A program made the position numbers and the translations under genes. From positions 6,634,001 to 6,698,000 of the forward strand of contig CM102290.1 of the NCBI GenBank assembly GCA_046563655.1: a stretch of 64,000 nucleotides of DNA, given 5' to 3'. The notes beneath the pieces were generated by a model, which saw nothing but the letters and a program-made list of their open reading frames with translations, was not told the origin of the DNA and ran no database searches. The DNA comes from Yuukianura sp. NJ FZ-2021 (Eukaryota). Below, one piece after another: positions 16,691 to 59,571 of this stretch (position 1 is its first letter; the number at the start of each line of letters is the position of its first letter).

Positions 16691-17002
16691 AGGAACTATT
16701 TTCAAAAATGGCTACGTGATGATTTCATAACTTGAAAACTTATGCTTACTTTTAGAACTTTTTAAACTCAAAAACCCAAACAAAAGTTCCCGCCCTTCTT
16801 ATCCATTACGCATAGTCACAACCCTTACACAAATAATAATTTTAACACATTTTAACTTATTTCAACCTATTTTAACATATTTTAACCTAGTTTTAACATA
16901 CTCCACCTTCGATTGACGGAGTCAATTGAACTGTTAAAAGCATTCAAAGGAAAATTAAAATATAAGAGAAAACAATACAATCAAGAAATACAACTTAACT
17001 AA

Positions 17003-22246: not shown

Positions 22247-23435
22247 CCCTCAATTCCAAACAATCAACGGTGAGATAAAGTCAACCAAATGAACTTGGAA
22301 CGGTCTTTACCTAAATCTGGTCTCGTCCGGTGAGACCAACCCACGACGTAAACAGGTGGTTAATGGTTGATGCTATCGTAACGTCCTTCCGTCTCTCGTG
22401 GTATCGAACTCGCCAAAATCAAAGCAAAACGAACGGTTAGATTTCCACCAATCTCACGATAATTGGAACGGTAATCACCTGATTCAGCCCTTGTCCGGTA
22501 AGGGCGTACCACTACGCAAACAGTTGATTGTGGTGGTCCTTGTGTCCAAGATCAAGTGTGTTCCAACTCCCAGTGTCAAGTCCCAGTGTCAGTTCAATCG
22601 CCAAAAGTCATCCAAAAATGTACGAGGTTAGAATGAATCAAAATCAGTTTTGAATCAGAACTTAATTCACCTTAGTTAGTCCTCATCCGGTTGAGGACAT
22701 ACCACGATGCAAGCAAAGTGATCCGGTGTCAATGTTCAGATCCAATCGTTCGGTCCAGATCGTCAAGTTATCCCTCAGGTTCGGTATATTCTTAATTAGC
22801 ACAGGGTCGCCAAAAAATGTAGAAACACTGAGGACTCAATACCTACCCGGTACTGACTTCCTCCTATTTGGAATACTTGAACGATCTTTTAAGTGTACAA
22901 ACTTTATTCCGAATTCAAATTAATCAAATGAAAATCCCAATTAGTAAAAAAGAGCCAATTTTAGAAGTAAGAGTATGCTCTATCTTACAAGACACACAAA
23001 AAGGAACTATTTTCAAAAATGGCTACGTGATGATTTCATAACTTGAAAACTTATGCTTACTTTTAGAACTTTTTAAACTCAAAAACCCAAACAAAAGTTC
23101 CCGCCCTTCTTATCCATTACGCATAGTCACAACCCTTACACAAATAATAATTTTAACACATTTTAACTTATTTCAACCTATTTTAACATATTTTAACCTA
23201 GTTTTAACAGGGTGTCCAGATCGAAGACTTAATTTTGTTTCTTTCATCTTTCAAATCAGGAAGAGTAACAAAGAAAAAAATTGAATCTACTCTCATCACT
23301 GTTGCTGTTTCCCGGGCAAAGATGAAAACAACGCTTCTACTACTTAAAAATGAGGTGTCACCAACATCGCATCCAATTTTGCGTAAGATTTTAATACAAT
23401 TTTAAGATTCTAAGATCTAAATACAAACCAATACA

Positions 23436-35000: not shown

Positions 35001-38000
35001 ACCCCCTTCGGGGGGCCTATTGCTTCGCTATTATCAGTATGGGCGGTTTACAACCGGTTTATTATAATAGCGAAGCTATTATGATAAAAGTGGTTTGTCT
35101 GTCTGTCTGTCTGTCCGTCTGTCTGTCTGTCCGTCTGTCTGTCCAGATTAATTATCTCAGAAACTACTGGTCCGATTTGATTCCGGTTTTCACCAGTGAC
35201 CATGTCATGACCCGGGCTTGGTCACTATTGAATATGACCCCCGTGTGTCAACTCCTTCCGGGTCAAAGGTCAAGGTCAACCGGTTTTATCCCCGGTAACC
35301 GGGAAAATGACCTCTACAAAAGTTGTTCATCTCATCGAGTGGAACAACTTTAGTGTTTAATGTGTGACCCTAGGTCACCTCCTTCCAGGGTCAAAATTGA
35401 TTTCAAAGGTCATTTGTAATGCAAGTGTGGGTACAAAAAACTCTGCTTGTGAGACTGGAAAGGCAATTGGCATGGGACTTGATTCTCTGCTTAGCAAAAA
35501 ATCTATTACGCAGTTGACAGATACACTTCACACACTCATGCACTGTGTCCACCGGGTGTCACCTGTCACCTGGCGGGTGTCACCTGTCACCTCTCAGTTG
35601 CCGGGTGTCACCTGTCACCTGTCACGTCTCAGCTGTCACGTCTTACCTGTCACCTGTCACGCCTCAGCTGTCACGTCTCACCTGTCACCTGCCGGGTGTC
35701 ACCTGTCACCTCTCAGTTGCCGGGTGTCACCTGTCACCTGTCACGTCTCAGCTGTCACGTCTCACCTGTCACCTGTCACGCCTCAGCTGTCACGTCTCAC
35801 CTGTCACCTGTCACGCCTCAGCTGTCACGTCTCACCTGTCACGCCTCAGCTGTCACGTCTCACCTGTCAACACCCCCTGGGGGGGGCGGGAGAGTGGGAG
35901 AACACACTCCTACTCCCCGGGGGGGGGCGGGAAAGTGGGGGAAACACACCCCCACTACCCCGGGGGGGAGGCGGGAAAGTGGGGGGAACAAACCCCCTTC
36001 GGGGGGCCTATTGCTTCGCTATTATCATTATGGGCGGTTTACAACCGGTTTATTATAATAGCGAAGCTATTATGATAAAAGTGGTTTGTCTGTCCTCCCC
36101 TCTGTCCGTCCGTCCGGATCATGTACCTCGGAAACTACTGGTCCGATTTGATTCCGGTTTTCACCAGTGACCATGTCATGACCCGGGCTTGGTCACTATT
36201 GAATATGACCCCCGTGTGTCAACTCCTTCCGGGTCAAAGGTCAAGGTCAACCGGTTTTATCCCCGGTAACCGGGAAAATGACCTCTACAAAAGTTGTTCA
36301 TCTCATCGAGTGGAACAACTTTAGTGTTTAATGTGTGACCCTAGGTCACCTCCTTCCGGGTCAAAATTGATTTCAAAGGTCATTTGTAATGCAAGTGTGG
36401 GTACAAAAAACTCTGCTTGTGAGACTGGAAAGGCAATTGGCATGGGACTTGATTCTCTGCTTAGCAAAAAATCTATTACGCAGTTGACAGATACACTTCA
36501 CACACTCATGCACTGTGTCCACCGGGTGTCACCTGTCACCTGGCGGGTGTCACCTGTCACCTCTCAGTTGCCGGGTGTCACCTGTCACCTGTCACGTCTC
36601 AGCTGTCACGTCTTACCTGTCACCTGTCACGCCTCAGCTGTCACGTCTCACCTGTCACCTGCCGGGTGTCACCTGTCACCTCTCAGTTGCCGGGTGTCAC
36701 CTGTCACCTGTCACGTCTCAGCTGTCACGTCTCACCTGTCACCTGTCACGCCTCAGCTGTCACGTCTCACCTGTCACCTGTCACGCCTCAGCTGTCACGT
36801 CTCACCTGTCACGCCTCAGCTGTCACGTCTCACCTGTCAACACCCCCTGGGGGGGCGGGAGAGTGGGAGAACACACTCCTACTCCCCGGGGGGGGGCGGG
36901 AAAGTGGGGGAAACACACCCCCACTACCCCGGGGGGGAGGCGGGAAAGTGGGGGGAACAAACCCCCTTCGGGGGGCCTATTGCTTCGCTATTATCATTAT
37001 GGGCGGTTTACAACCGGTTTATTATAATAGCGAAGCTATTATGATAAAAGTGGTTTGTCTGTCCTCCCCTCTGTCCGTCCGTCCGGATCATGTACCTCGG
37101 AAACTACTGGTCCGATTTGATTCCGGTTTTCACCAGTGACCATGTCATGACCCGGGCTTGGTCACTATTGAATATGACCCCCGTGTGTCAACTCCTTCCG
37201 GGTCAAAGGTCAAGGTCAACCGGTTTTATCCCCGGTAACATGCAAAATGACCTCTACAAAAGTTGTTCATCTCATTGAGACTAACAACTTTTGTGTGTAA
37301 TGTGTGACCCTAGGTCACCTCCTTCCGGGTCAAAATTGATTTCAAAGGTCATTTGTAATGCAAGTGTGGGTACAAAAAACTCTGCTTGTGAGACTGGAAA
37401 GGCAATTGGCATGGGACTTGATTCTGTGCTTAGCAAAAAATCTTTTACGCAGTTGACACATACACACTCATGCACTGTGTCCAGTGTCGCCTATACATTC
37501 GTTCTGTTGTTGCTTCATCCGAATCCCACCTCTCCACATCTTTGTTTGAAGTCACTGCGACACCCCATGGGGGGTGAGGAAGTGGGGGGACCCGCCCCGT
37601 CTCCCCCGGGGAACACACCCCTTCTCCCCCGGGACACCCACCCCCTCTCCCCCGGGGAACACACCCCCTCTCCCCCGGGAAACACACCCCTTCTCCCCCG
37701 GGGAACACACCCCCTCTCCCCCGGAGAACACACCCCTTCTCCCCCGGGGCAGTCACCCCCTCTCCCGCGGGGCACTCACCTCCTCTTTCCTGGAACACCC
37801 ACCCCCTCTCCCCCGGGGCACTCACCTCCTCTTTCCTGGAACACCCACCCCCTCTCCGCCGGGGCACTCACCTCCTCTTTCCTGCGGCACCCACCTTGTC
37901 TCCCCCGGGACACCCACCCCCTCTCCCCCGGGGAACACACCCCCTCTCCCCCGGGAAACACACCCCTTCTCCCCCGGGGAACACACCCCCTCTCCCCCGG

Positions 38001-38613
38001 GAAACACACCCCCTCTCCCCCGGAGAACACACCCCCTCTCCCCTGGGGAACACACCCCCTCTCCCCCGGAGAACACACCCCCTCTTCCCCGGGGAACACA
38101 CCCCTTCTCCCCCGGGGCAGTCACCCCCTCTCCCCCGGGGCACTCACCTCCTCTTTCCTGGAACACCCACCCCCTCTCCCCCGGGGCACTCACCTCCTCT
38201 TTCCTGCGGCACCCACCTTGTATCCCCCGGGACACCCACCCCCTCTCCCCCGGGGAACACACCACCTCTCCCCCGGGGAACACACCCCCTCTCCCCCGGG
38301 GAACACACCACCTCTCCCCCGGGGAACCACCCCATCGCCCCCGGGGAACACACCCCCTCTCCCCCGGGGAACACACCCCCTCTCCCCCGGGGAACACCCC
38401 CCGCGCTCCCTGGGGTGCGGAGCAAAAAAGTGGGGGAACACCCTCCGGAAAGTGGCGGAACGCACCCCCTCGCTCCCTGGGGTGCGGAGCAAAAAAGTGG
38501 GGGGAACACCTCCACTCTCTTTGGGGGGGGAGGCGGGAAAGTGGGGGAACAAACCCCCTTCGGGGGGCCCCATTACTTCGCTATTATCAGTATGCGCGGT
38601 TTACAACCGGTTT
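32001..38613 (+). repeat. Head-to-tail array of six HINE-like units with internal minisatellites
   Basis: Units start at ~32001, 33218, 34106, 35059, 36050 and 37019. Each has a 5' hairpin ATAATAGC-GAA-GCTATTAT, a (GTCT/GTCC)n tract, G/C-rich repeats, a 3' subTIR CTTCGCTATTAT and hairpin CGGTT-TAC-AACCG. TGTCACC repeats in units 1-5. Confidence 0.88.
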
Positions 38614-40452: not shown

Positions 40453-41333
40453 AACGGTCGAATGGCAACACTTGTAACCGCTAATATAAGGTAGCAACTT
40501 ACATTGCCAGACAGTGTATATACAGCAATTGTAACCGTTAAAAGAATAAACTTTACGGTAACAAATGGTGATCGTCAAAGGTAACTGCAACCACATTTTG
40601 AATTCAGAAACTTCTACTTTTATAATTTTCTGTTCGTAGTCAGCTGAAGTGAATTGGATGGTAGGCGGTGATTGGTTTTTTTTGTATTTTATTATAAAAG
40701 AAGTTATACTTTAAAATATTTACAATTAATTGATTTGTAATTGGAAGAAGCAGACCATGCTGCTTACCATCAGAATTCGAAGTGAAGAGATGGCAGTTCC
40801 TCTGCTCATCTTCTTCTCTTTTACACACACTTTTTCTTAATTGGATATACTTATATCTAACACGCTTTTCGACAATTTGAAATTGGCGCTTCCCTATTGA
40901 GAAGCGTCTCAAATGCCAAAACACCGCCCTCCATTGAATGACTGAGTCATTCAATTTTTGAAAAATACAAAAGAAAAATGGTGACCAATTTTAGATTAAC
41001 ATAACTAACACAAATTTAAAAATTGAAGGGTGCTCCGATGCTACTGGATTCGGTGGCTGAAGGTGGACGAAGCCTTCTTCCAGCTGCTCAGGCTGGATTT
41101 TGCCGTTTACTGGACCCTACCAGTAGATCAGAACACAAAAGATCACCCACACAATCACACATCCAAAATTCAGTCACCTTACGTTCAGTAAATTACTCTA
41201 CTCGAACGGAAGGTGTTTTAGCAAATGATTTTACCCCTAATTTGAAATTTGGAAAGAGATAAATACACTAACCGCTAAACCAACACCTAAAATTTGGAAA
41301 GAGATAGACTTAACACGAAGCCTAACTAACCAC

Positions 41334-41731
41334 CAGTGTTGGTGGACGCTTAAACTTCCAGTGGCTTAATTGCCACTTCCAGTGGATATCCACTGGAAGA
41401 AACGCGCCTGAAATGGACGAAACTAAAAGTGGATGGAAGAAATCACAAATTTTGCGGGAAATTCAAATCAATTCAAATTTAAATTTACGAAATGATATCA
41501 GAAAGCTTTACTTTCGCCATTGTAGTTAATATATTATTTAAAACGTATTCAAAAACGATATTAACATAGTTTTTGTACTGTGTTTTTATGTTTTTTAGTT
41601 TTTTGTAGTCAATTAATTGAAATTCGGAGGGCAAAGCTCCGCCCCGTTGGATTCATCCATTTCGTCCATTTCTTCCACTGGATATCCAGCCGTGGATGAA
41701 ATGTCGAAAAAGTGGATATCCACCAACACTG
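41334..41731. mobile_element. hAT MITE
   Basis: TIRs CAGTGTTGGTGGA / TCCACCAACACTG. 8-bp TSD CTAACCAC/CTAACCGC. Subterminal GTGGA repeats. Confidence 0.85.
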
Positions 41732-43110
41732 CTAACCGCTTATGCTTTGATAGCTTAACTGGTCCGTCTATAACTTGACGACTTTACGTGAAATTTAAGT
41801 ATTTCTTAATTAATTAATAGGTCATAATAAGGTCAAATTCACCTAATTCTTGGACATCTTAATGCCAAGAGTTCAAAACGGGGGTAAAAAATTTAATTAA
41901 ATGTATTTTTTTAAATTATTACACCTATTGTGATCAAAATTTAAAAACGCGTTTTGGCGCCGGTCAGACATCCGACGGATCTGAACATGACAACATTTGT
42001 GACCCCCATTTAGTTGCCCACAGGCCTCACCCCCATAGCCCTCATGGGCACAGTTGTCAAATTGTAAGGCAAGCGCCAATGACAAATGCAAATTGCAAAT
42101 GCCCTAACTCAAGGAAGCGCGCGGAACGACATTCCTTGAAGCGGCTGCTCATCGATTATACTATTGTTAGTTATTAGTAGGTTAGTGTACAGTTTCAGAG
42201 TAGGGGTAAGATGAGATGTGTTGTTGGTTTGAGGGAGATTTGAAGAGAGGCGAGGTGGAGAGCAAGTTAGGATTTGTATGTTAGTTTACAGATCAGTCTG
42301 GTTTTGTGTGTTTGAGAGTGAGGAGATCAGTTATGATTTGTTATTGAGTTGTATCACCGATTATTCAACAGTTTATTAAATATATTTTATATATTTAACC
42401 ACTGATGTGGTTCTGTGGTTTTCGGTGAGTTTCTGGCCTTTCGGGAGTTGGGTGGATCTGCGGATCAGTGATTTGGAGTCTGAGAGCGTGGCTGCGGCCA
42501 TATTGTATTGGAGTAGCGGTGTGAGGACGCTACATCCTTTGTTTCGAAACGAATGGGTATAAGGTTTAGAAATATGATATATATGTATATGCTATATGCA
42601 TATAGCGTAGGGGGCTTTTGAGGGAAATATTGCCTGAGGGAAGTTTTGGGAGGAAATTTTGCCATACCACCTTCTACGGAAATTAACATGGAGGGCAGAC
42701 AGCCAATCACAGAGGCAGAAAGGGGCGCGGAGGGTCTTCGCTCCTCCCACATTCCTTCTTCCTTTGTTCCAAACAAAGAAAGGGCAAAGTCCAAAGTTTC
42801 CAAACAAAGAAAGGGCAAAGTCCAACGTTCGTCCCGCTCTTTCCTGTGTCTGTGATTGGCTGGTGGACGGAACAAAGAAAACCAAAGAACAACGGAACCG
42901 ACGTTTCATTCTAAGTGAAGTTGGAGAAGAGAAGTCAGTTGCTTCCAACTCTTCGTCGGAGCAACATCTCTCCTCTGGAATACTGGGCGAGTAACACTGG
43001 CACCTCGCAGCCAATACACGGCACCAGGGACCCAAGAGATACCTCCTAGTAGGTTCGCAAGAACTTGAACGGACGGACCAACATCCGAGGACTCGAGCTC
43101 CAGCTGCACG

Positions 43111-46100
43111 ATGTCGGACCCCGAGGACCACCATCATCTTGTCTACGTGGATCACGACGCCATGGAGGAGGACGACGCGCAAACCTCACCACCGCAACCA
43201 ACTCCTGCATCCGGAGGACTCCCCGCTCTTCGACGTGGACGTGCATCCCAGCGCAGACCACGCACTCGAGGACCAGCGCTGTACCGCTCCGAGCCGTCGT
43301 CACCACTATCTCAACATGGATCCACCACAGCCACCTGAGGTCGAGGACCACGCACTCGAGGACCAGCCCTGTACCGCTCCGAGCCGTCGTCACCACCATC
43401 TCAACATGGATCCACCACAGCCACCAGAGGTCGGGGGCCACGAACACGAGGGCCAGGCGTTCGTCAAACTTACCAAGGTACGAACACAAGTCGGTTCGGG
43501 TTCGGTGCTGGATCGGCCAGGGTTCGGCCCAGGGTCGAACAGGGTTCGGCCCGAGGTCGAACAGGGTTCGGTCCAGGATCGATCAGGGTTTGGTTCAGGG
43601 TCGAACAGGGTTTGGTCCAGGGTCGAACAGGGTTTTATTAATAGTATATTTTTTTGTAATTCCAGAGGCTACCACTACTCAGGATTTACCCGATGATGGC
43701 TTGGACAGCGGAGCGGATTATTCTTCAAAGTCGGATGACAGTACAGCACCTCCAAGGGAACCACTGGACACGGACACGGACACCGAAGACAGCGAGGAAT
43801 CTGATGCTCAGGCGGGCTCCGCAATTGGAACACCAACATCCCTCAAATCTAGAGATGGTACGGACTGGACCACAACTACGCCACCGCAGGCGCAGACCCT
43901 CGCCCACAACATCTTTCCGTTGACTTCCGGAGGTCGAGGCCGAGCAGATGAATCCGAACATGTTCGTGACTACTTCCAGCTCTTCTTCACTGATGCCATT
44001 ATTGAAGATGTTATCTGCAAATGGACCAATCAGCATGGACGTGCCAGATACGAGGAATTAGACGCCACCAATCCACTCAACGCTCCAAGGGTTTGGAAGG
44101 ATGTCAGCGGGACCGAGATGCTCGCCTACATTGGAATTCTTCTTTATACTGGAGTAAAGAGAGGCTTCGACCAGCCGATGAAGGAATTCTGGAGTAAGGA
44201 GAAGATGACCGGCTCGTGCTTCCACAAATCTGCATTATCAATGAACCGCTTCTCAACGAACCAGGAACATCTACGGTTCGATGATACACTTGCCCGAAAC
44301 AACGCAGATCCAGACACGGTTCCACGCCTCGCTCCCGTTCGAGAATTGTTTGACCCAGTCAACGCCTGCTTCAGTGAAGTCTACACCGCCACACCCTTCC
44401 TGACGATCGACGAGATGCTGGTGCCTTTCCGGGGACGCTAGAAATTTCGTGTTTACATGAAATCTAAGCCGGCACGCTATGGTCTGAAAGTGTGGGCCTG
44501 TGTGGACGCCAGAGATGGGAATGGGCAGCGTTTCTCGGCGCCCGCCCTGTTCAGCTTCTGAGTTGGACACCCAAATTGAAAGCTCGCTCGCCCGGCTTAT
44601 TTTTTTCAAAAACCCGCTCGCCCAGTTGACCAATTGGTCACGCCAAACAAAAACCCGCCCACCCAACTGAACCCTGTACAATTCAATACTTTACAGAACA
44701 ACTAATTTTTTACGTTTCTACTTGTTGGGTGATCCAAACGTTAATTTTATCTTTTTTCTCCCTGTGTAACTGCTCCACTGCACCTTTCATCTCCTACCTT
44801 TGAGTGTTTGGAGTTTATTTGTTTTGTCCAGAGAAAGATGAAATAACTTTGGAACATCCGATATTTAGCTATTGTTGTGAATGAAAGTAGCACTACTTAA
44901 TGAAGAACCGCTCGCTCAGCTATGTAATTTTACATCTAAAATGGTTCCAGTGGTGGAAAAAACGCTTTAATCTGCTGTTTGAGAATATTACAAGTAGAGC
45001 AGTGAATAGCTTTTGACAGTTTATACGTGGCGCCGCGAATCTACTTCCGAGAAATTAGAATAGGATTTCAGAAATCAACAGCCAGTTGGGCAAAATATTT
45101 GAGTTGGGCCCCATCTCGTCTTCCTCAAAATACCCTCCCTGTTCACTAAACTCAAGTGAAAAGCTCGCTCGCCCACGCCCAACTCAAGTTTCTGCTCGCT
45201 CGCCCAATACCCAGTTGAACAGGGTGAGCAACAGGGCCCCAGTTGGGTACAGGGTCCCATTCCCATCTCTGGTGGACGCTACCAACCGGTACGTGCTCAA
45301 CATGAAGATCTACGAAGGACGAGCGCCGGGAGACCCCATCGAACGAAAGCAAGGAGTTCGCGTTGTACAGGCATTGTCGGAACCATTTCTCAACGTTGGA
45401 AGAGGCATTACAACCGACAACTCCTTTACGTGCAAGGAACTCGCGGACTGGCTGTTGGCGAGGAAGACTACCCTCCTTGGAACCATCCGCTCCAATTGAC
45501 GAGAGGTCCCGGATTCGTTTAAGTCGGAGAACACCAAGCGGCGGGCACCGGGGGACACCACTTACATCTACAGTGGCTGGGTTACCTTGATGAGCCATAT
45601 CCCGAAGCGGAATAAGAACGTCTTGCTCCTTTCGACCCAACACAATGGCCCCGGAGAAGTGAGGAAACCGCAGATGATTCAAGACTACAACGAAACCAAA
45701 GGAGGCGTGGACGCCGTTGACTGGATTGTGGGAAAGTATTCCTGTCGACGCGCATCAAAACGTTGGCCCTCCAAGATGTTCTACCACCTCATCGAGGTCG
45801 CAGCTCTGAACGCATACATCTTGTGGACCCTGAAGAACCCGAAGTGGGCGAAAGACAATGGTCGTGTCGCCCGAAGACGCTTTCTATGCCAACTCGCCAT
45901 CGCTTTGATCAGCCCCAACATTGCCGAACGTGCAGAACAGCCGACGATGCCTCACCACTTCCGGGACTCCGTTTCGGACATGGGATTCGACTTCCTTCTT
46001 CGTCGCAAGCCGATTATGTCTGGATTTGGCAAGGATGGTAAACGCACCAACCGACTCACTACCCACACCGTGCAAAGATGTTTCACCTGCAAGAAGAATA

Positions 46101-46396
46101 AGAAAGCCACTAATACCAATACGCTGTGCAACGGATGTAAACGTCCGATAAGCCGCCGTCACCAAAGCGAACGGGTCCTCTGCGACATTTGTAACAACGT
46201 GGACACGGATTCTGAAGAAGACCCTCCAGAACCTCTTCGCATCACTAGGCGTGCCAGAAGATCACTCCCGACGGCTGCAACCTTTGCCGCACCTCAACCA
46301 CCAACTGGCACCTCAACTTCCCAAGCTGCAGGACCGTCATCTGGGGTCGCCATGCACTACATTCCACCTCCCACCTATTATTCCGACTGGGATTAA
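43111..46396 (+). pseudogene. piggyBac transposase (predicted exon 43111-43477, intron 43478-43665), disrupted
   Basis: TIDEMLVPFRGR, KPARYGLK, TTDNSFT, YNETKGGVDAVD, C-terminal Cys-rich domain. Stops at 43336, 44439 and 45497, plus a MITE insertion. Confidence 0.92.
44510..45271. mobile_element. hAT MITE inside the piggyBac transposase
   Basis: TIRs CAGAGATGGGAATGGG / CCCATTCCCATCTCTG. Perfect 8-bp TSD GTGGACGC. The reading frame resumes after removal. Confidence 0.92.
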
Positions 46397-46469
46397 GATA
46401 TTTAATTATGCTTAGGTATTTGAGATAGTTACTAATTAATTTTACTCTTAGGCTTAGTCAATTAATTTT

Positions 46470-49400
46470 TGTTGTGGCTTTTTACCACATAGATTTTTAG
46501 AAATAGCAAAAACCACAGACTCAGAATAGCATCTACTTTTAGCCTTAAGCTATAGGTAGCGTCTCAACGGTCAAAAAAGAAAAAAATCAACACAGCAACA
46601 GAATAGCATTAGTATAGGAATACGAGTCTAGTTTTTACTTACACTTCAATTTCATTCATTAAGTCAGATTTTTACTTTCGCACTTTTCAATTCGCAACTT
46701 CTCACGATTAAGTTTAAATTAGTAATTAATAAAATCAAAGTCATAAAATCAATTCAATTGCTCTCCCTAACTGATCGTTTGCTACATATCGCAACATTTT
46801 ATGGTGCCGAAAGCCGGGACCTTGAGCGGATGTCAACGGAAGACTACAGTCAGCATCAACCGACGACAAACGTTTAAGGTCAAATCATCCACTAACATTA
46901 TAGTTTGGTTAATTGTTGTTTTCTGAGACTGACAGCATGGCAGCAGGAACAAAAACAACATTGGCTGATCTTCTCAAGTTACGTCAGAGCCTGGGTCAAC
47001 AGATTCAGATGCATCACAAGGTCATAGCTATGTACAATGAACAAACACCAATTCCAACAATCAGAACAGCAGAAAGGGAACTGACCAGAGTCAGGAATGA
47101 CCTTGACCTACTCCACAACAAGATCATCATCGCCACGACAAACGATGAAGATATTGAAGATCATTCAAGAACCTACATAGAGCTTGTCACTTTGATTGGT
47201 ACCATGAATGAAACGCTGATCACAATTCAGCCGGCACCAATTCCATCATCAGTACCTGGTCCATCAGCTCCTTCAACTTCTGCTCAGTCACATCACCACA
47301 ACGTCCATTCATACTTCCCAAAGATGTCATTGCCAACTTTCGAAGGAAAGTATGAAGATTGGCTCACATTTCGCGATTTATTTCGCAGTACCGTTATCAA
47401 CAACACAACCTTACCGAACAGTGTCAAGTTCTGGTACTTACACTCCGCTCTCAAGGGTGAAGCTGCTACTGTCATCAAGGGCACTCCCATCACTGATGAC
47501 AACTTCCAAGGAGCATGGCAGCTGATGGAGGAACGGTACCATAACCGAAGAGAACTCATCTTTACACTAATTGAAAAACTTGTCAATTTCCCAAAACTGA
47601 AACATGAAAATTCAGCTCAGTTGAGGAAACTGATTGATTGCTTCAAGGAGTCTCTCACACAGTTAGAGACCCTCAACGAACCAACAGAACACTGGGATTC
47701 CATCATCGTCTATCTTCTAAAAGAAAAGATGGATCCAGACTGCCGCCGTGACTGGACCAAGCAACTAAAGGGCTCAGAGGTTCCGAAATTCTCCGAAACA
47801 AAGGAATTTCTGGAAAATTACATCCGGGGACTCAAATCCACTGGATCTTCATCGTCCTCTGGATCTTCTCGCCAAAGCAAGGCTCACTCCAGTTTCACGG
47901 AAAGCAAGTCAAATGAACAAAAACATAAGTTCACTTGTCCACAGTGCCAGTTTGAACATGGTTTGTTCAAATGTGATAAGTGGCTACAATTATCAGTGAA
48001 AGACAGGTTCAGTTTCGTCAAGAAGAAAAATCTTTGCACTAACTGTCTCAGTTCCAAGCACAATGTTGGAAAGTGCCAGTCCAAGTACAGATGCCGGACA
48101 TGTCAAGAGCCACACAACACTCTACTTCATTTTGACACGGCTAAGGCTCACTCTACGTCACAACAGAATGATGTGGAGACTTCAACATTGGCAAATCATT
48201 GCTCCACCTCCAAAGTACTGTTAAGTACTGCCGTTGTCAAACTGATCGACTCAGCAGGCGAATTCCAAGAATGCCGTATCCTACTGGATCAGGGGTCAGA
48301 ATCCAATTTCATCTCTGATCGCTGTGTGACAAAACTTGGACTTGTACGTAAGAAATCTAATGTGAACATTGTAGGAATTTCAGGTTCTAATGCTGGGAAG
48401 GCACTGGGTCAAGTCACATTTGACCTGTGCTCACGCATTTCAAATTTTAAAATTCATGTCAATGCCTTAATCTTGCAAAAAGTCACAGGTTTTTTGCCAT
48501 CGTTCAAAATCAATCCGCAGAAGTGGACTCACCTCATGGGGATACAATTGGCAGATCCCAATTACACAAATCCCAGAGACGTGGACATAATTCTCGGAGC
48601 TGAGTTCACCGCCTCCATCACACTCAGTGGCAAAATCATCGGTTCGCCTCAGACTCCAATCGCCCAGGAGACAACATTTGGTTGGGTCATCTCAGGACCG
48701 ACGGGTACATCCAGTCAACCCACTGTTCACGTCAACCATGCAAGTGTTGACATTTCGCAAAAATTCTGGGAACTGGAGGAGCTGCCCAAGCGACCAAACT
48801 ACTCAATCGAGGAGCAATTTTGCGAGGATCATTTCGTCGCTACTCACACTCGAAATGAGGAGGGAAGGTACGTCGTAAGGTTGCCACTAAATGAAAACAT
48901 TTCCAAATTAGGTGACAGCCGCGACATCGCACTGCGCAGACTCCAACAAGTGGAAAAGAGGCTACGACTGAACCCAGTCCATCATCCTGCCTACGTCAAG
49001 TTCATGGATGAATATGAAAAATTGGGTCACATGGAAGTAGCGACAGAGCAACTTCCACCCGGGTCAAAGGTCGTTTACCTTCCTCACCACTTTGTACTCA
49101 AGGAGTCCAGCACCACCACCAAACTCCGAGTAGTTTTTGATGGCTCCGCAAAAACATCAAGTGACATTTCACTTAACCAATGCCTTCAGGTGGGTCCAAC
49201 GGTACAAGGTGACATTTTTCCTTACTCCTTCAGTTCCGTAAGTACCCAATTGCACTAAAGGGTGATGTAACCAAAATGTACCGACAATTTTTGGTACATA
49301 AAAATGATCAATGTTTACAATCGATTTTGTGGCGAAAGTCTCACCTTGACCCAATTCAGGAATTTAGGTTGAAGACAATCACCTATGGTACAGCCTCAGC

Positions 49401-52400
49401 TCCTTTCTCCGCAGTCAGATGCCTACGTCAACTTGCAATCGATGACGGGGACAAATTCCCATTGGCTAAAAACGCACTTCTCAACAACTTCTACGTTGAT
49501 GACTTTATGGGGGGAAGTGAGACAGAGGCAGAAACCATCAAACTTCGCCAGGAATTGACAGCACTAGTAAGTTGCGCAAAGTTGGAAATTCGTAAGTTCG
49601 ATTCCAACTCAATTTCGGTGTTAAAATCAATTCCTGACCAATTATGTGAAGTTAACCCTAATATTGATGCAAGTACACTAAATGATTCAAAGGCTTTAGG
49701 GGTGTCTTGGGACTCAAGGTCAGACACTTTCCATTTCTCAGGTTACGAGCCCAAGGCAATGACCAAACTCACAAAACGGACAGTTTTGGCAGAAATTTCA
49801 CGGGTTTTTGATCCGTTGGGATGTTTGGCGCCATTGACCATAGTGGCAAAAATCTTCCTACAGAAGCTTTGGCTGGAGGCAGTCAACTCTAAGCGCCTAC
49901 AATGGGACGACGAGTTACCATCCGAACTTCAGGAACAATGGTTACAACACCAAGGTCACATGGTCAACATTTGTCAGGTCAAAATTCCTCGGTGCATTAA
50001 ACCCGCGGGAAACTTAAAAATGGAAATTCATGCATTTTCGGATGCATCTGAAAGTGCTTACTGTGGTGCAGTTTTTTTGAGAGTATTTTTTCAGAATTCC
50101 ATCGCAGTCAACCTCATTGCAGCCAAAACCAAGGTCGCTCCAATTAAGCAACAGAGTCTCCCCAAGTTGGAACTTTGTGGAGCTCATCTTGTATCAAAAC
50201 TCGTCATGTCAATTTTGGAGTCAACACAAATCAATGCACAAGTCACTGCCTGGTCTGACAGCGAAATTGTGCTGAAATGGCTCCGCCTACAGTCACGCCA
50301 ATTAAAAACATTTGTTGCCAACCGAGTCTCAGCCATTCAGGAGAAGATTCCAGCCAAGTCTTGGAAGTTCATCCCAGGATTACAAAATCCTGCTGACTGT
50401 GGCACTCGAGGGATGACCTCAACGGAACTTCTGAACTGCGACTTATGGTGGCACGGACCTTCGTTTCTTCAAGAACATGGAATTACTACGTTTGAAACAC
50501 CAGACGTAGGTCAAATTCCAGAGGTACGCAAGGTTTTGACCTCAAAGGTCGTAAGTGACTACTCAATTTTGTCAAAATACTCAAATTTCAACAAACTGAT
50601 TCATGTCATGTGCTATGTGAAAAGGTTTGTCAATAACTTAAAAGTTCATGCAGGTCATTGCCATCCAAAACTTTTAACTGTCAACGGTCCTCTGACAGTA
50701 GAGGAACGGACATCCGCAGTTTTAGCTTTGGTCAAACTAGCTCAACAGCAGGATTTCCAACAGGAATTGGATGACCTCAAGGTCAAGGGTAAAGTCTCCA
50801 ACGAATCGAAGTTGGTTTCTATATCCCCATTTCTAGACAAGCATGGAATTCTGCGTGTCGGAGGGAGACTCAGCAATTCGTCACTTCCAGAATCGCAAAA
50901 ACATCAAATTATATTGAACGGAAAAAACCCATTGTCAACTCTAATCATCAGAAACAAACATCATCAACTTCATCATGCCGGATATCAGTTGCTTTGGTCC
51001 ACTCTGCAGACTGAGTACTGGTTCCTGAAGGCTAGAGTCACCATCCGCCAAATTCTGCGACTTTGCATGACGTGCAAAAAACTGAAGGTCAAAGTCACGG
51101 AGCAACTCATGGGTCAACTTCCAAAGGGCAGAACGAATCCATCACCTCCGTTCACACACGCAGGCGTGGACTTCGCTGGCCCTTTCATTCTACAGGAATT
51201 GACTGGTCGTGGTAAAAAACATTTTAATGGATATTTTTGTATTTTTGTTTGTTTTTCAACCAAGGCAGTTCACCTAGAGGCAGTCACAGCACTGTCAACG
51301 GAGGCATTCATTGCCACACTCAAGCGTTTTGTCTCCAGACGAGGATTGCCAGTCGCAATGTACAGTGACTGTGGCTCCAACTTCGTCGGAGCAGAGCGAG
51401 AGCTACGGGAATTGGTTCAAAACCAAAAATTCAACTCAGCAGTCACCGATTTTTTAGGTGATCGAGGTGTCCAGTGGCACTTCAACCCACCCTCTGCACC
51501 AAGTCAAGGAGGGTATTGGGAAGCTGGTGTCAAAAGCACCAAGTACCACCTACGTCGCATCATTGGTACCACTACGCTCACTTTAGAAGAGCTGTTCACT
51601 GTCCTCTGTCAGGTTGAGGCAGTGTTAAATTCTAGACCAATTTGTCCTCTGTCTCCAGATCCTAATGACTTGGAACCATTAACACCAGGTCATTTTCTTA
51701 TTAATAATGCTCTTTGTGCTATTCCAGATCCTGACTTGACCAACCAAAAGGAGAACAGACTCTCCAGGTGGCAAAGAACCACTCAAATGGTCCAGCACTT
51801 CTGGACTCGTTGGCACAAGGAGTACATTAACTCCCTTCAAGAAAAGAACAAGTGGAGGAGTCAAAACCGGAACATTGCAGTCGGTGACTTGGTCATCATC
51901 AAGGAAGATGACACTCCACAACTCAAATGGCGCATGGGCAGAGTTTTGGAAACGTTTCCTGGCCCAGACGGACTTGTTCGTGTCGTCAAACTGAAGACGA
52001 ACAAGGACTCAGTCAAACGTCCAGTCTCAAAGGTCTGCGTTTTGCTGCCAGCAGAAGATCAAAACAGTGATGATCCTGCCATTTACCGCATGAAACGACA
52101 AATACCAAATTAGTCAATTCGAAAATCATCAATCTACCAAGTTTGTATCCCAAATTAACTTTAATTTTAATCATACATTAATTTTAGAGTAGTAACTCAA
52201 TTTTTAACTTTAGTTTTTACCATTCACATACTTCAATTTTCAAAACACATTTTAATTTTAGTTTACTTTTCATAGGTTAACTGAGAGACACATCATGCAG
52301 AGCCCGTTTTCAACTTTAAAATTCAATTTAGCACTCAAAAGTGCAATCTACATGCATTTTGGATCTGTGCCCTTCAATTCTCCTGCTGTCTGTCACCTTT

Positions 52401-52916
52401 CAACAAGGTCATGCAAACGGCAAAATCCTGTCAGCTCCAGCAGGAGAGGGACTTAGTCCACCCCTCAGCCACCGATGTTGAAGGGCCCTTTCTTTCAAAA
52501 CATTCCCCGCACAGATCCTCAATTCATGTAGTTTTCATTTTCATTTTCATTTTTTGCAAAATTAGACTTAGGTCTAATTTGGGGCCCGGCATGTTGTGGC
52601 TTTTACCACATAGATTTGGAATAACAAATGTACGACATAGACTTTTAGAATAGCATCTACTTTTAGCCTTAAGCTATAGGTAGCGTCTCAACGGTCAAAA
52701 AAGAAAAAAATCAACACAGCAACAGAATAGCATTAGTATAGGAATACGAGTCTAGTTTTTACTTACACTTCAATTTCATTAAGTCAGATTTTTACTTTCG
52801 CACTTTTCAATTCGCAACTTCTCACGATTAAGTTTAAATTAGTAATTAATAAAATCAAAGTCATAAAATCAATTCAATTGCTCTCCCTAACTGATCGTTT
52901 GCTACATATCGCAACA
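46470..52916 (+). mobile_element. BEL/Pao element inserted in the piggyBac 3' UTR
   Basis: LTRs 46470-46796 and 52592-52916, PBS TGGTGCCGAAAGCCGGGA (tRNA-Phe-type). Only TTTT is shared between the flanks. Confidence 0.93.
46937..52113 (+). CDS. BEL gag-pol polyprotein with a single 1-bp frameshift at ~49220
   Basis: Gag fingers, LLDQGSE, FYVDD, FSDAS, GVDFAGP, SDCGSNF, GGYWE. The shift lies in a T/C run and could be a sequencing error. Confidence 0.88.
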
Positions 52917-53058
52917 TTTTATGGTTAGGTTAGGTTTGCTTGTAACTCATGTCAAGCTGTAGTTAGTGTTAAGCTTAATTAATTTTATGTAACTTGTCCT
53001 TTTACATAGTTTTAGTTAGTTATAGTTTTAGTTATACGTAGTTTATAAGTATATTTAT

Positions 53059-53199
53059 AAAAAATTTAAAAAGCCAAAAAAAGTTTAAAAAATTTAAAAA
53101 GTCAAAAAAAAGTTTAAAAAATTCAAAAAGTCAAGAAAAAAGTTTAAAAAAATTCAAAAAGTCATAAAAAGTTTAAAAAATTTAAAAAGTCAAAAAAAA
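53059..53199 (+). repeat. A-rich ~30-bp tandem repeat
   Basis: About 4-5 copies of AAAAA(T)TTAAAAAGTCAAAAAAAGTTT. Confidence 0.75.
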
Positions 53200-53207
53200 G
53201 GGCGGAA

Positions 53208-53267
53208 GCCAACGGTCTGTCGTAATGCTCGGCACTGATGAGACATTGGCAGTCAGAAACCGTTGGC
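53208..53267 (+). ncRNA. Type III hammerhead ribozyme fold with a one-nucleotide core insertion
   Basis: Stem III GCCAACGGU/ACCGUUGGC, GUC cleavage triplet (C53217), stem I UGUCG/CGGCA, CUGAUGA, stem II GAC/GUC, extra A, then GAAA. Confidence 0.75.
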
Positions 53268-53573
53268 AATGGCATCCGGAAAGGTAAGCTACACATAAAC
53301 TTTAGAACTAATGCTGAAACACAGTGGCAACTACGGGGGGAAGTATGTTGCACGACTTTCCATAACCTATGGGCAGCCGAGATATCGGCTATTCTGACGA
53401 ATAGACCTGCAGTTATGTCAAAAAATTCCTTTAGTAACCTATGTACGGAGAGGTTAAAAATACCACTTAACACTTAAGATTTTCAATGTAGCTTTAACCC
53501 AAAATTTAAAGTTATGAATAAATGAATGAATTTGTGAATTTAGCATTATTTACACAAGTTCCCTAGACTTACG

Positions 53574-56500
53574 CTACTCTGGGTCTAGTAGCTTGACGAT
53601 TTTCACAATTGGACGCAGAAACACAGGATCCTTAACTTTGGATTGACCCTTCTTGTCGATTTCTGTCGTCTTGTAAGTTACTTCCACAGAACGAACCAAA
53701 TTGTGTTGTCCAGGGAATGTTTTGGTAACTCTGGCGAGTTTCCACTTCAGCGGTGGAGTATCGTCGTCTTTGATTAGGACGAGATCACCAGTTTTTACAT
53801 TTTCGGATTCGTTTCGCCATTTGTTACGCTGCTGGAGTAGATTCAAGTATTCTTTTTTCTAGCGATTCCAGAAATGTTCCGACATCTGTTGGACTCGTTG
53901 CCATCTCGACAGTCGGTTCTCTTTGATTTCAGCCAAACTGGGCTCAGGAATGGCGAGTAGTGACCTCCCAATGAGAAAGTGTCCTGGAGTCAGCGCTTCA
54001 ACGTCATCTGGGTCCCGAGATTTTGCACAAATTGGCCGTGAGTTGAGTCCTGCCTCCACCATTGTCAGGAGCGTATGGAATTCTTCCAGCGTCAATGTCG
54101 TGCTTCTAACCACTCTCCTGAGGTGGTACTTTGCCGATTTGACTCCTGATTCCCATAGTCCACCCATGTGTGGAGCATCAGGAGGAATGAATTTCCACTT
54201 TATACCTGAAATGCACAAAAAATCAGAAATTTTAGTGTCATGTAAAATCTTTTGCCATTCTGCTATTTCATTAGCTGCGCCCACAAAATTTTTGCCATTA
54301 TCAGAATGGATTACCGACACAAGCCCTCTCGTGGAAATAAATCTTTTCAAAGTCGCCATGAACGCTGCCGTGGTCAAGTCTGTCACGGGTTCCAAATGGA
54401 TTGCCCGTGTCGCAAAACAGACAAATACACAAAAATAGGCATCAAACTGCCTTTTACCACGCCCATACTTTTCCTGGAGCTTAATTGGGCCTGCGTAGTC
54501 GACTCCACAGTTTGTAAATGGCGGAGAAGGTCTCTGGACTCTCGCCTTTGGTAGTGCTCCCATCAATTGTTCACTGACTCTGGCTCGAAGTCTTTTACAC
54601 TTAAGGCAGTCTCTGACCACCTGTCGAATTGTGACTCGTGCTTTCACAATCCAGAACCTTTTGGCAAAGTTAGCCCACAACAGCTGATAATTGGCATGTA
54701 AATAAAATTGGTGGTAGTACCTTACCATGATTTTGGTGAAATGATTATGACCTGATAGTATGATGGGGTGGCATTGGTCACTTGGTAGGTCTGACTTTTG
54801 GAGTTTACCTCCAACACGCATGACTCCATGACTGTCCAGGAATGGATTTAGTGATTCCAGTGCACTTCCCTTGTCCACTCGATTATTCCTCTTTAAGGCC
54901 ATTATGTCATCATTGTAGTCGTCTTCTTGCGCTACTTTGATGCAGATGAGGAGGGCTCTGTCCGTTTCTTCAACTGATAGATCACCAGTAAGCCTCTCCC
55001 CCTGTTTCAAATTCCTGCAATTGGAAACAAAACGCATGGCGTACGCTACCGCACGGTTAAGCCTCATGAAATTTGAAAAACGATTAATCATTTCACGATC
55101 AATTATGGCCAGATTCACCATTACCTTTCGTAATTCCAGGAGTTCAGAGTGGTCACTTACTTTACCCACTGACTCAAATACTGGCAAATTTGCATTTTTT
55201 AACCACTCTGGGCCACACCACTACAATTTTGAACTTACGAGTTCCTCAGCAGGAATTCCGCGAGTTCCAAGGTCAGCTGAATTGTCCACTCCAGGAACGA
55301 AATTCCACGAACTGACTGGAAGTACCCCTTGGATTTCTGAAACACGATTAGCCACAAATGTTACGAACTTACGAGATGTGTTCCGTAGCCACTTCAAAAC
55401 TGTTTCACTGTCGGTCCATGTCAGGATAGGACAGTGCAGCCGTGTTGCTTCCAGCACTTTCGGAATTAGTTTGAACAGAAGTAAAGCTCCGCAAAGTTCA
55501 AGTCTGGGTAGACTGATCTGCTTCATCGGAGCCACTTTCGTCTTTGAAGCAACAATGTTAGTAGTGACTCCACCATTCCTCTGAATTGATCGAATGTACA
55601 CTACCGCACAGTACGCAACTTCCGATGCGTCACAAAATCCATGAATTTGGACAATTTCCTGAAAACCAGAGAATAAAAACCTGGGAATGGTTAGACTTTT
55701 TATGTCATGGACACTTTTGACATAATCATGCCATTGTCCAGTCAGGTCAGGAGGAATCTCGTCATCCCATGAGAGAATTCCATTTTCTTTTCCTTGAACT
55801 GGTGACCACAAGACCTGAAAGTAAACTTTGATTTTAACAGTTAGGGGGGACAGAAAACCAAGTGGGTCAAAAACTTTGGACATAGTGGACAAGACCGTCC
55901 TTTTTGTGACCACACCCACTGGCTTTGGAGTGTAACCTTTGAAATGAAAGTAGTCACCTCCACTGTCCCAACACACACCTAAAACCCTGTCAAAGTCAGC
56001 ATCACAAGTAATCACTTCATTTTTACCTCGGTTTACCTTAGGAATGGACTTTAGAACCTCTTTGGAATTCGAGTCCCACTTGGTAATTTGAATGCAACCA
56101 AGACGTAAAAGTCCTTCTAGTTCTGTCACGAGTTGGTTGGCCTCTTGGACACTGTTGGCTCCTCCCATCAAGTCGTCCACGTAAAAGCTTGACTTTAACA
56201 CCTCAGCAGCCTTTGGAAATTTGCTCTTTTCGTCTTCGGCTAATCGCTGGAGGCATCTGACGGCGTGAAATAGGGCGGAGCTTGTGCCGTATGTCACCGT
56301 TTGAAGTTCGAATTCACCAATTTCATCAGTTGGTGTTGCACGCCAGAGAATCCGTTGTTTCTTCTGGTCATTTTTGTCCACGAGGAATTGACGGTACATT
56401 TTGACAATGTCCGCCTTAAGTGCAATTTGATTGGTCCTGAAAAACAACAAATGAGAAAAAATATCAGGTTGGATAGTCGGACCAATTAACAAACACTCAT

Positions 56501-58809
56501 TCAAAGACACATTATAAGACGTTTTGGCAGATCCATCAAAAACCACCCGAAGCTTGGTAGTGGTACTTGTGTCTTTTAACACAAAGTGGTGGGGCAAGTA
56601 GTTCGTCACTCCAATGACCTCACCCTCCTCCGACTTGGTCACTCGACTCATGTGGCCAAGTTCCTCGTATTTTGACATAAATTGGAGATACTCGTCGTTG
56701 TACTGAGGAAACTTTTGCAAACGTTTTTCGATTCCCATTAATCGACTTACGGCCATGTCCCGTGACGAGCCCAATTTGTCACAATCGGTTATGAATGGTA
56801 ATTTTACCACATACCTACCACTCTTAGTTCTGGAGTGGTTTGACACAAAATGTTGTTCTGCCAGTGCGTCCTCCTTAGTGTACACTGGTCGGATTGGGAC
56901 ACTCTCAAGTTCCCAAAATTTTTTGACATATGACACACACAGAAGTAGAGAAATTCACACTTACGTTTTTTGTTGAACTCACCGGGCCAGATATGACCCA
57001 CCCAAATTCAGTTTCCTCAGCGATGGGAAGATTTAGGCTACTTTAGGCTAACCTTCTTTCCAGTCTTCAATCTGGCCACAAATTCACTGCCAAGTAGAAT
57101 GTCCATATCACTGGGCTGAAGATAGGCAGGATCTGCCAATTCCAAATTCTTCACATGTGGCCAATCAGTGTTTTTGACAATGAACGAAGGCAGAGAACCT
57201 GTAACTTTGTTCAAAACTAGAGCACACACATTAAGTTCAAAATTATTAATTCTAGATTTGACACAAAAGTTGGTTTCCCCCAACGCTCTTTCGACCTGGG
57301 TTCCTGAAATGCCTGTAATTGTCACATTAGCACGTGTTTTTTAAGACCCAATTTTTTGACACACGACATTGAGATAAAGTTGGACTCTGAACCTAGGTCC
57401 AACAACACACGACAGTTTTGGTAATCACCAAATGAGTCCATGACACTCACCACAGCGGTAGCCAAAATCACACGAGTACTAGAACAGTACAGTGCTGTGG
57501 TTGAAGTGGTTGGTTCCTCCTCCTTTGTATCCACGGCTGGGGGTTTGGGTTTTTTCTCATAGTGGAGCAGTGTATTATGTCGTTTTTGACATTTTGCACA
57601 TTTAAATTTTGACATACACTTGCTCTCACCATGGCTACCCCTGAGACAACAGAAACATAAATTTTTAGACTTTACAAATTTCTCACGTTCGTCGACTGCC
57701 ATGGAGTTGAACTGTTCACATTTGAATAGTGAATGTTCTCCAACACATTTTTGACATGCGACTTTCGTGGATGTTTGATGCGACTTTTTCTCAGTGGGTT
57801 TGTCAGCAGTCTTTTTCCCACTGTGAGTCGATTTTTCTGAGCCGACTTTCAACCCACGAAGGTGATCTTCTAGAAAGTCCTTGACCTCGCTAAATTTTGG
57901 CATCTGTGTACCTTTAAAATGGCGGGTCCACTCACGTTTTGTTTCACTCGAAACTTTCTCTAAAATCAAAAAAATTAGAAAAGAGTCCCACTTGTCCACA
58001 GGCTCCTTCAACACCTGAAGTGACATGATGGACTGATTAAAAACATCAAGCAACTTCCGTAGTGCTTGTGCGGACTCATTAGCAATTGGTTTGAAATTCA
58101 CAATGTTTTTTAAGAACGAAAGAATGATTTGACGCGGATTCTCATACCGCTCTTTGAGGCTGTCCTATGCCTCCTCAAAAGGCCAATTTGTCAAATCGAA
58201 GTACTTGAGTGCCTCCTCAGCCTCACCCTTCAGCGTAGGCTGGAGATACCCCAATTTCTGACTTCCGGTCAAGTCAGGATTATTGACAATGTACGTCATG
58301 ATTAAGTCCTTGTAGGAAAGCCAGTCTTCGTATTTGCCATTAAAAGTTGGAAATTCCAGCTTCGGCATGTTCACTTTCATTTTTCCTGATGTTGAACCTC
58401 CAATAACCTGGGACTCAAAAGAGATCAATTTTAGATTAATTGCATCTAAAAACTTGTCACACACATTCAATTCCGCAGCCTGCGCGCGTATTTGCGTATC
58501 GTCGTCGCAGTTCATATAGACCTCGCTGCGCAAGTCACTTAGTTTCGATTCGAAACTTTCAAGTTTCTTACGTTCCATAGCCATCCTGGACTTGGACACA
58601 AGTGCTGGAGTAGGCGAGTACTCCTCAACTTTCTGCTGAAAATATTGAAGGTCAATGTTAAACCCCCTGATGGCTTTTACCATTCTTTGTAAGTTTTCAG
58701 ACTCCACCACAGGCAATGACACGCTGAGCGTAGATTTGGTGCCAGCCGGCTTGACCTGACCTTGACCTTTTGCTGCAGCCGCCTTACTCTCTTGTTCTTG
58801 GTCAGACAT
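53574..58809 (-). pseudogene. Decayed gag-pol of the outer BEL element
   Basis: Five collinear ORF pieces with gag fingers, LLDLGSE, FYVDD, FCDAS, GVDYAGP and GGLWE, separated by stops and frameshifts. Confidence 0.92.
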
Positions 58810-59571
58810 TGCTAAAGACACCGCTTTAGCTCTCCTTCTGGTCAACAGTTTGTCAACTTTGATTAAATTTACTCAAAAAGAGCTACACACGATAAGTTAG
58901 ACAATTACTGTTGCATGTACACACATGTCATGACCAAAGATTCAAGAATACACAAAGTACACGATTACACAATTCATTATAGCACAATGATTAAATCATC
59001 ACCACATTTGTTCAATTTGACCCTTTGAACTCACCCAAGTTAACTGCTACGTAGTTAACGATTACCAATTATCCGCAAACTTCATCCTTTGATGATCAGT
59101 TGGTTCGTTGTCTTGTCGACGCAACCGTCTTTCGGCACCATGAAGTGAATTCGATGGTAGGCGGTGATTGTTTTTTTTTGTATTTTATTATAAAAGAAGT
59201 TATACTTTAAAATATTTACAATTTATTTATTAATATTTTAAATATTTTTCTTAATTGGATATACTTATATCTAACACGCTTTTCGACAATTTGAAATTGG
59301 CGCTTCCCTATTGAGAAGCGTCTCAAATGCCAAAACATCAGCTGAGTGCTTCATGACATCGTTATTATACTGTCGACTACCATCTCCTACTAACGACTTG
59401 TTTAAATTGCGAAGTTAATTGGTTGACATCGTCGAATAGGTAAGTTGAACAGAATTTGTCACCAACCGACTATCGACTAATGTAATGTAACGGTATTAAT
59501 ACGCCCTTGCTTTGTTTACTTTGCCTAAATGTTTCGTTCTCGCAAACAGCAGTAGTGAATTTGCCATTGCA

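Follow-up and report, generated by a model that had tools for sequence, protein, structure and literature searches.

In animals, hammerhead ribozymes are mostly of type I and are found in Penelope-like elements and non-LTR retrozymes (PMC7229834), and the few reports of type III motifs in animal DNA genomes concern termites and flies, where the motifs are isolated and of unknown context (PMC7936874). The type III hammerheads represented by the Rfam family RF00008 come from viroids, plant satellite RNAs and plant LTR retrozymes. Perreault et al. rejected hits with an insertion beside G12 as mostly cryptic mutants in repeats, and the core insertions A6a and U13a are found in natural hammerheads, in which bulged-out extra core nucleotides are tolerated (PMC3088659).

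We analyzed a 64-kb stretch of arthropod DNA, hereafter the window, which contained a single hammerhead-like motif among nested transposons. The motif is probably (probability roughly 0.6) a genuine hammerhead-derived type III sequence of a dispersed repeat family in this genome and not a component of the neighboring piggyBac element. An earlier note on this DNA had read it as a hammerhead of type III, with one extra A, in the 3' arm of a piggyBac transposon, where it might define the 3' end of the transposase mRNA. The first part of this reading was upheld and gained strength from the recurrence of the motif in other contigs and from a full-length but sub-threshold RF00008 match; the piggyBac 3'-end interpretation was left unsupported.

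Architecture of the motif and its relation to known hammerheads

Direct reading of 52700-53600 recovered every hammerhead part that the earlier note had named, each in its place (Table 1). Helix III was made up of GCCAACGGT (53208-53216) and ACCGTTGGC (53259-53267), which form nine Watson-Crick pairs; G53208 and C53209 were the outermost bases complementary to the helix III 3' strand, and no pairing was present upstream of 53208. The motif had type III topology, as loops cap helices I and II, helix III has the open end and A15.1 pairs with U16.1, and it followed the type III core rule (C3 U4 G5 A6 N7 G8 A9...G12 A13 A14), with U53216 as U16.1, C53217 as H17 and GAAA at 53256-53259. The rule that the 10.1-11.1 pair abuts A9 and G12 was broken, as the extra A that the note had pointed out was indeed seen at 53255 between C53254 (11.1) and G53256 (G12). 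The loop of helix II ended in a 3' A and contained UGGC, and the complementarity between the loops that had been claimed could extend to 4 bp, since UGCU of loop 1 (53226-53229) can pair with GGCA of loop 2 (53248-53251). With a relaxed descriptor, this was the only hammerhead on either strand of the window; no repeat of 53201-53420 was found elsewhere in the 64 kb, and no tandem copies of the hammerhead unit were found in the window.

Table 1. Coordinates of the hammerhead, its flanks and the neighboring elements in the window.
Feature	Position	Strand	Evidence
BEL2, BEL/Pao LTR retrotransposon; LTRs 40645-40923 and 59141-59337; 5-bp target duplication TCAGC	40645..59337	-	
piggyBac-type transposase; three ORF pieces, 43053-44441, 45059-45499 and 45500-46396	43053..46396	+	Pfam
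BEL1, second BEL/Pao element, complete-looking, nested past the end of the piggyBac ORF; LTR start positions 46470 and 52592	46470..52925	+	
A-rich minisatellite; 29-nt unit, 4.9 copies, 89% matches	53058..53200	+	tandem-repeat analysis
Helix III 5' strand, GCCAACGGU	53208..53216	+	direct reading; RF00008 alignment covers 53210-53265
GUC triplet; predicted self-cleavage after C53217 (position 17)	53215..53217	+	direct reading, descriptor, RF00008
Helix I hairpin; 53218-53222 with 53230-53234, 5 bp including one G-U; seven-base loop UAAUGCU with 5' U	53218..53234	+	direct reading, RF00008
Core C3-A9, CUGAUGA	53235..53241	+	direct reading, RF00008
Helix II hairpin; 53242-53244 with 53252-53254 (GAC/GUC), 3 bp; loop AUUGGCA	53242..53254	+	direct reading
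Extra A, non-canonical, between C11.1 and G12	53255	+	direct reading
G12 A13 A14, then helix III 3' strand (A15.1 = 53259, to C53267)	53256..53267	+	direct reading, RF00008
Diverged copy; 23 other letters, 1 gap	53238..53401		X3 record 18
Downstream flank complementary to the upstream flank of another copy (7+4+6 bp past the first 7 bp of helix III)	53268..53290	+	
Stretch past the hammerhead common to the diverged copy, ~83-86% alike	53268..53401	+	X3 record 18

A search with RF00008 against 53203-53272 (70 nt) revealed a match at 53210-53265 that covered model positions 1-54, with a score of 29.5 bits and an E-value of 3.4e-05 for that search. The alignment passed over helix II as a local gap, and the gathering score of the family is 48.5 bits. 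The match was full-length and fell below that threshold. The whole-window Rfam scan at the gathering level gave no match to RF00008, and the hammerhead models gave none in 53000-53450 (451 nt) at E-values up to 10, because the filters lose the hammerhead in the longer searches and are laxer on 70 nt. In a separate observation, 53233-53260 matched the Rfam family JPX_2 weakly and at chance level (10.3 bits); the JPX_2 consensus likewise reads CUGAUGAG...GCAGAAAC, which corresponds to an A ahead of GAAA.

The note had also suggested a descriptor search. A strict descriptor, which demanded CUGAUGA, GAAA, U16.1 and H17 together with minimum stem lengths of 4/3/4 bp and allowed 0 or 1 extra base, found the site and gave no match in 599 simulated windows. 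A relaxed descriptor gave 295 matches in 300 simulated windows, or about one per random window, and only 2 of these matches had at least 17 stem pairs like the real site. Judged by its sequence alone, the hammerhead is good but imperfect, and a comparable site could arise by chance in a large genome.

These results bear on the explanation that the motif is a chance or decayed look-alike that was never catalytic and became multi-copy through amplification of its host repeat, which we consider quite unlikely. The Rfam score below threshold, the frequency of relaxed matches, the extra A beside G12, the 3-bp helix II and the competing fold described below all speak for such an origin, as does the fact that cryptic mutant hammerheads are known in repeats (PMC3088659). 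Against it stand the absence of strict matches in the simulated windows and the loop residues, which match a natural loop-loop motif (PMC2632901), together with the behavior of the other copies, which is presented in the next section.

We compared the motif, taken as a genuine type III hammerhead, with the described hammerheads that lie closest to it. The members of RF00008 had the same topology, the same CUGAUGA...GAAA core, the same GUC triplet and the same A15.1-U16.1 pair, whereas the window motif differed from them in the extra A between C11.1 and G12, in its animal host and in a score well under the family threshold (29.5 vs 48.5 bits). CChMVd and other natural hammerheads have the same seven-base loop 1 with a 5' U and a loop 2 with a 3' A, which are the residues of the loop-loop motif in natural hammerheads (PMC2632901). 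The usual helix II of type III hammerheads consists of a 4-bp stem and a 4-nt loop (PMC7936874), in contrast to the 3 bp and 7-nt loop found here. In plant LTR retrozymes, each of the two LTRs around a non-coding body carries a hammerhead, whereas the window contained one motif in 64 kb and no such LTR pair.

The HDV-like, termite and dipteran type III motifs of de la Pena et al. (2021, PMC7936874) likewise occur in arthropod DNA genomes, and they resemble the window motif in the 5-bp first stem of helix I and in a loop 2 with UGGC (their YGGC) that has possible Watson-Crick pairing to loop 1. In those motifs, helix I contains a GCCR internal loop and an extra hairpin of ~20 nt, and helix II has 6 bp, whereas the window motif has a plain 7-nt loop and 3 bp, respectively. 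They are also isolated, unlike the motif described here, which was multi-copy and located among nested transposons, and the portions of their text that we examined describe no extra A. The metazoan non-LTR retrozymes of Cervera and de la Pena (2020, PMC7229834) are also AT-rich, multi-copy, non-coding repeats of invertebrates, including insects; their hammerheads are of type I, and the tandem repeats that hold them measure 150-450 bp. In contrast, the window sequence was of type III, single in the window and without a tandem unit.

De la Pena and Flores reportedly described in 2001 a CChMVd hammerhead with an extra A10/U10 between A9 and G10.1. Like that nucleotide and like A6a and U13a, the extra A in the window adds a single residue bordering the catalytic core and could be bulged out. 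Its location sets it apart, as it follows C11.1 and precedes G12, whereas A10 belongs to the opposite strand. A non-exhaustive search of partly consulted sources found no description of an insertion between C11.1 and G12; the figures on fly hammerheads (PMC7936874) and on core variants (PMC3088659) may bear on its novelty.

Recurrence of the motif in other contigs

The recurrence of the motif was examined in Logan contigs from three DNA runs (X1, X2 and X3), all made from a single sample from which the window itself probably derives; these contigs were aligned to 52700-54000 at 80% likeness. The contig depths summed in this way, which are not copy numbers, were several-fold higher in the hammerhead bins 53184-53271 (563-956 in X1, 2228-3160 in X2 and 241-272 in X3) than in the piggyBac-side flank 52920-53051 (139-152, 291-463 and 13-39, respectively). 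An abrupt drop was present just past the motif, where the summed depth at 53268 was 0 in X1, 293 in X2 and 53 in X3, and contig depth was low in the bins 53272-53359. We found that the contigs over the hammerhead had unlike flanks on either side of ~53210-53267. In particular, among the loose ends listed, three unlike sequences started at 53210, before the motif, and at 53265 and 53267, behind it, and these positions coincide with the borders of the RF00008 match.

A diverged copy in X3 (record 18, Table 1) provided a second view of the same borders. All 19 differences listed for this copy were located in 53268-53370, and among the listed differences none was located in 53238-53267, which is the 3' half of the hammerhead including A53255.

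In another copy, the 30 letters upstream of 53210 were found by eye to pair collinearly with 53259-53288 of the window. The pairing comprised blocks of 7, 7, 4 and 6 bp (CAACGGT/ACCGTTG; CCATTGC/GCAATGG across a one-base bulge; CCGG/CCGG; and CTTACC/GGTAAG), where the upstream flank was taken from one copy and the downstream flank from another, namely that of the window. As these upstream and downstream flanks pair with each other, helix III would be long in that copy. The window copy was complementary back to 53208 only, and its complementarity broke at 53207/8, where the A-rich minisatellite adjoins. At least one other copy had a GC-containing flank upstream of 53210 in place of the A-rich tract; because this flank pairs with the downstream flank, the junction at 53207/8 was interpreted as a secondary breakpoint and not as a design feature.

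Three kinds of observation from these contigs argue against a look-alike that was never catalytic: the copies diverged at the motif borders, the 3' half had none of the listed changes in a copy with 19-23 differences over the 134 nt that follow, and complementary flanks lengthened helix III in another copy. It should be noted that a multi-copy state is also expected for a motif amplified passively within a transposon, and this counts against our preferred explanation, a genuine hammerhead-derived sequence of a dispersed repeat family. According to that explanation, a block of ~56 nt (~53210-53265) would be kept in the family, with the two closed hairpins (helices I and II), the core and the A ahead of G12 inside it, and its flanks would vary; at least one other copy would have a much longer helix III through the pairing of its flanks. 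The window copy would have lost its upstream arm at 53207/8, where it now abuts an unrelated A-rich minisatellite, and would therefore be left with a helix III of just 9 bp.

The best candidate for the missing 5' strand of this helix, 41504-41522, ends in register with the break but was not adopted: among 500 shuffled regions, 36 reached its score of 23, the window-wide search did not place it near the top, and it was located within the foldback 41383-41402/41669-41688. That foldback is part of a series of foldback-like inverted repeats at 41330-41730, which includes the pairs 41383-41402/41669-41688 (95%) and 41410-41426/41647-41663, a further pair seen by eye at 41337-41348/41718-41729, and a repeated word, GGATATCCA; the region is possibly a small foldback element or MITE, and a wider pair at 41229-41246/41872-41889 encloses it. 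Other repeats in the window were a large satellite-like tandem block at 32000-38600, in which numerous stretches of hundreds to thousands of bases matched one another at 75-90%, and an inverted repeat of ~500 nt at 5786-6278/7394-7897 with 95% identity.

Exact and degenerate hammerhead patterns gave no match in viral contigs, and the first hammerhead pattern gave none in metagenome contigs. Two metagenome matches to a looser pattern were attributed to chance, as one had no GUC or helix III and the other appeared protein-coding by eye.

Neighboring transposons and the carrier of the motif

The outermost element around the locus was BEL2, which contained a primer-binding site beside 59141, a purine tract beside 40924, a Pfam span at 53859-58164 on the minus strand and a pol stop at 53550-53552. 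Its left LTR contained ~80 nt that were absent from the right LTR, and its 3' tail held ~12.6 kb of nested material that included the piggyBac ORFs and BEL1, the latter with a Pfam span at 46913-52113 on the plus strand. The LTRs and pol stop of BEL2 bracket the locus, and the piggyBac ORFs, BEL1, the A-rich array and the hammerhead are therefore all situated in the BEL2 3' non-coding region. As BEL2 is encoded on the minus strand, the hammerhead is antisense to it. A third BEL-like pol was observed at 17210-19873 on the minus strand and was 30% identical to BEL1. It lies between direct repeats that are 100% identical (15754-15940 and 16687-16898 vs 22818-23209); within 15754-23209, these look like the LTRs of a young element, the left one interrupted by ~750 nt.

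Much of what the earlier note had said about the layout of the piggyBac side was accurate. With BEL1 (46470-52925) removed, the distance on the transposase strand from the stop (46396) to helix III was 355 nt, where ~365 nt had been given; AATAAA and ATTAAA were absent in between, and only TATAAA and CATAAA were present; and the A-rich repeats directly upstream of the hammerhead proved to be the 29-nt array at 53058-53200. This array contained 65% A with a longest A run of 8, and ended 8 nt upstream of helix III. Base composition changed at this point, as a GC-rich island at ~53200-53400 had 45-52% GC vs 12-14% in the array.

The note had gone on to treat the hammerhead as one of the piggyBac element's own components, within its 3' arm, where cleavage after C53217 might create an mRNA 3' end with an encoded A-rich tail or might attenuate expression. 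The shared strand, the distance of 355-365 nt from the transposase stop, the lack of AATAAA and ATTAAA, and the end of the array 8 nt short of helix III are the features that fit such a design. A low-copy interior with multi-copy subterminal parts would also be expected of a transposon family with short deletion derivatives. Nevertheless, we regard this explanation as very improbable. No piggyBac ends were found to enclose the motif, and the locus is nested in BEL2: in 414 pairs of TTAA (23 x 18), the best terminal inverted repeats matched at 9/13 or 11/20, which is chance level, and blastn-short revealed nothing better. The transposase was in three pieces, with nearest relatives only 30-46% identical. 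Additionally, a helix-forming flank replaced the array in another copy, other copies were homologous across the candidate right end at 53453-53470 (loose ends 53468 and 53501), the array was only 65% A with runs of at most 8, and the hammerhead fold was disfavored in the window copy. A self-cleavage that defines the transposase mRNA 3' end and leaves a pseudo-poly(A) tail was accordingly left unsupported, as the motif could not be tied to piggyBac. The motif is most likely a family member, and its position next to the A-rich tract and piggyBac is probably incidental.

Several candidates for element ends and coding sequence were set aside in this region. The direct repeats ACTTAACAC at 41308/53465 and TAAAAAATTTAA at 41885/53058 were considered as target duplications, and neither was adopted: both are AT-rich and do not fit the 4-bp TTAA duplication, and other copies are homologous across 53468. 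The sequence GTCAAAAAA was present at both edges of the island 53200-53415, and was rejected as a target duplication as its right-hand occurrence is common to another diverged copy. A minus-strand ORF at 53162-53473 (103 aa) was considered spurious, with no Pfam family and no homologue. Among the papers listed by a literature search that combined hammerhead and piggyBac, most dealt with engineered ribozymes, constructs or methods; the two on transposable elements, judged by titles and the openings of abstracts, did not treat a hammerhead within piggyBac. As a separate observation, the N-terminal part of the piggyBac ORF (43256-43627) contained a 90-nt segment duplicated in tandem (96% alike) and a 22-nt repeat that occurs five times, which is unusual for a transposase frame.

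For the carrier of the motif, our tentative first choice is the BEL2 family, with the hammerhead in its 3' non-coding tail; a separate small element, non-autonomous and nested at this place, is about as likely. The loose ends at 53391, 53412, 53468, 53501 and 53545 were found to be diverged homologues of the window sequence and not clean breaks, and these homologues overlap in a chain that runs from 53238 in the hammerhead to where pol ends. The depth over the hammerhead was similar to that of the BEL2 pol bins in two of the runs, X2 and X3. Among the contigs of the three runs, no single contig was seen to join the hammerhead to BEL2 pol in another copy, and the low depth at 53272-53359 also weighs against BEL2.

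A stronger form of the first assignment, which we rate as possible, sees in the hammerhead a conserved module, antisense in orientation, of the BEL2-family 3' non-coding tail that would cut antisense or read-through transcripts; a ribozyme in sense orientation would destroy the BEL2 genomic RNA. The motif lies 283 nt past the BEL2 pol stop and within LTRs flanked by TCAGC, and both the overlapping homologues from 53238 to the end of pol and the similar depths in X2 and X3 are consistent with this proposal. However, hammerhead and pol were linked by no single contig, most of the depth that covers the hammerhead had unlike flanks right at the motif borders, and the motif was absent from BEL1 and from the third BEL-like pol (17210-19873). 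The role of an antisense ribozyme is itself purely inferred, and a literature search that named hammerhead, Pao and LTR retrotransposon gave, by title, no report on a hammerhead-BEL/Pao link. In viral contigs, three pattern matches were obtained in a search for relatives of the BEL2 integrase, and none of them was a relative. It appears unlikely that the extra A between C11.1 and G12 is conserved and that the hammerhead which bears it serves as an active and selected antisense module in the BEL/Pao 3' tail, where it would cut antisense or read-through transcripts.

Predicted folding, activity and significance

Nearest-neighbor folding gave -19.3 kcal/mol for the hammerhead fold vs -24.4 kcal/mol for the minimum free energy structure, and the hammerhead stems made up ~2.5e-5 of the ensemble. 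In the competing fold, which was ~5 kcal/mol better than the hammerhead, C17 and helix I were paired with loop 2. The 3-bp helix II, the extra A that abuts G12 and the competing fold all count against activity, and on this modeling the window copy is probably weak or inactive as a ribozyme. By analogy with natural hammerheads, the loop residues, the UGCU/GGCA pairing and the tolerance of extra core nucleotides at other positions speak for functional ancestry. A rod-like or viroid-like fold of 53196-53545 was also considered and rejected (z = -0.81; 25 of 100 shuffled sequences did equally well).

If the plus strand is transcribed, the RNA would be expected to cut itself after C53217, which would leave a 2',3'-cyclic phosphate and a 5'-OH, and this transcript would be antisense to the enclosing BEL2. 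The role of the motif in the family may be the processing of the repeat's own RNA, or the cutting of antisense or read-through RNA. The idea that a ribozyme and an encoded A-tract together terminate the mRNA of a DNA transposon is not supported.

The locus offers a multi-copy family in which the borders of the motif are the points where the copies diverge, as well as an extra base at a core position for which the partly consulted literature yielded no description, and it hints at an LTR retrotransposon carrier that is read in antisense. If the BEL/Pao antisense module proves to be true, hammerheads would be linked to BEL/Pao elements for the first time, and a further core variant would prove to be tolerated. 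Cleavage by the family consensus would widen the accepted hammerhead core and would provide a tractable case for the roles of ribozymes in animal transposons.
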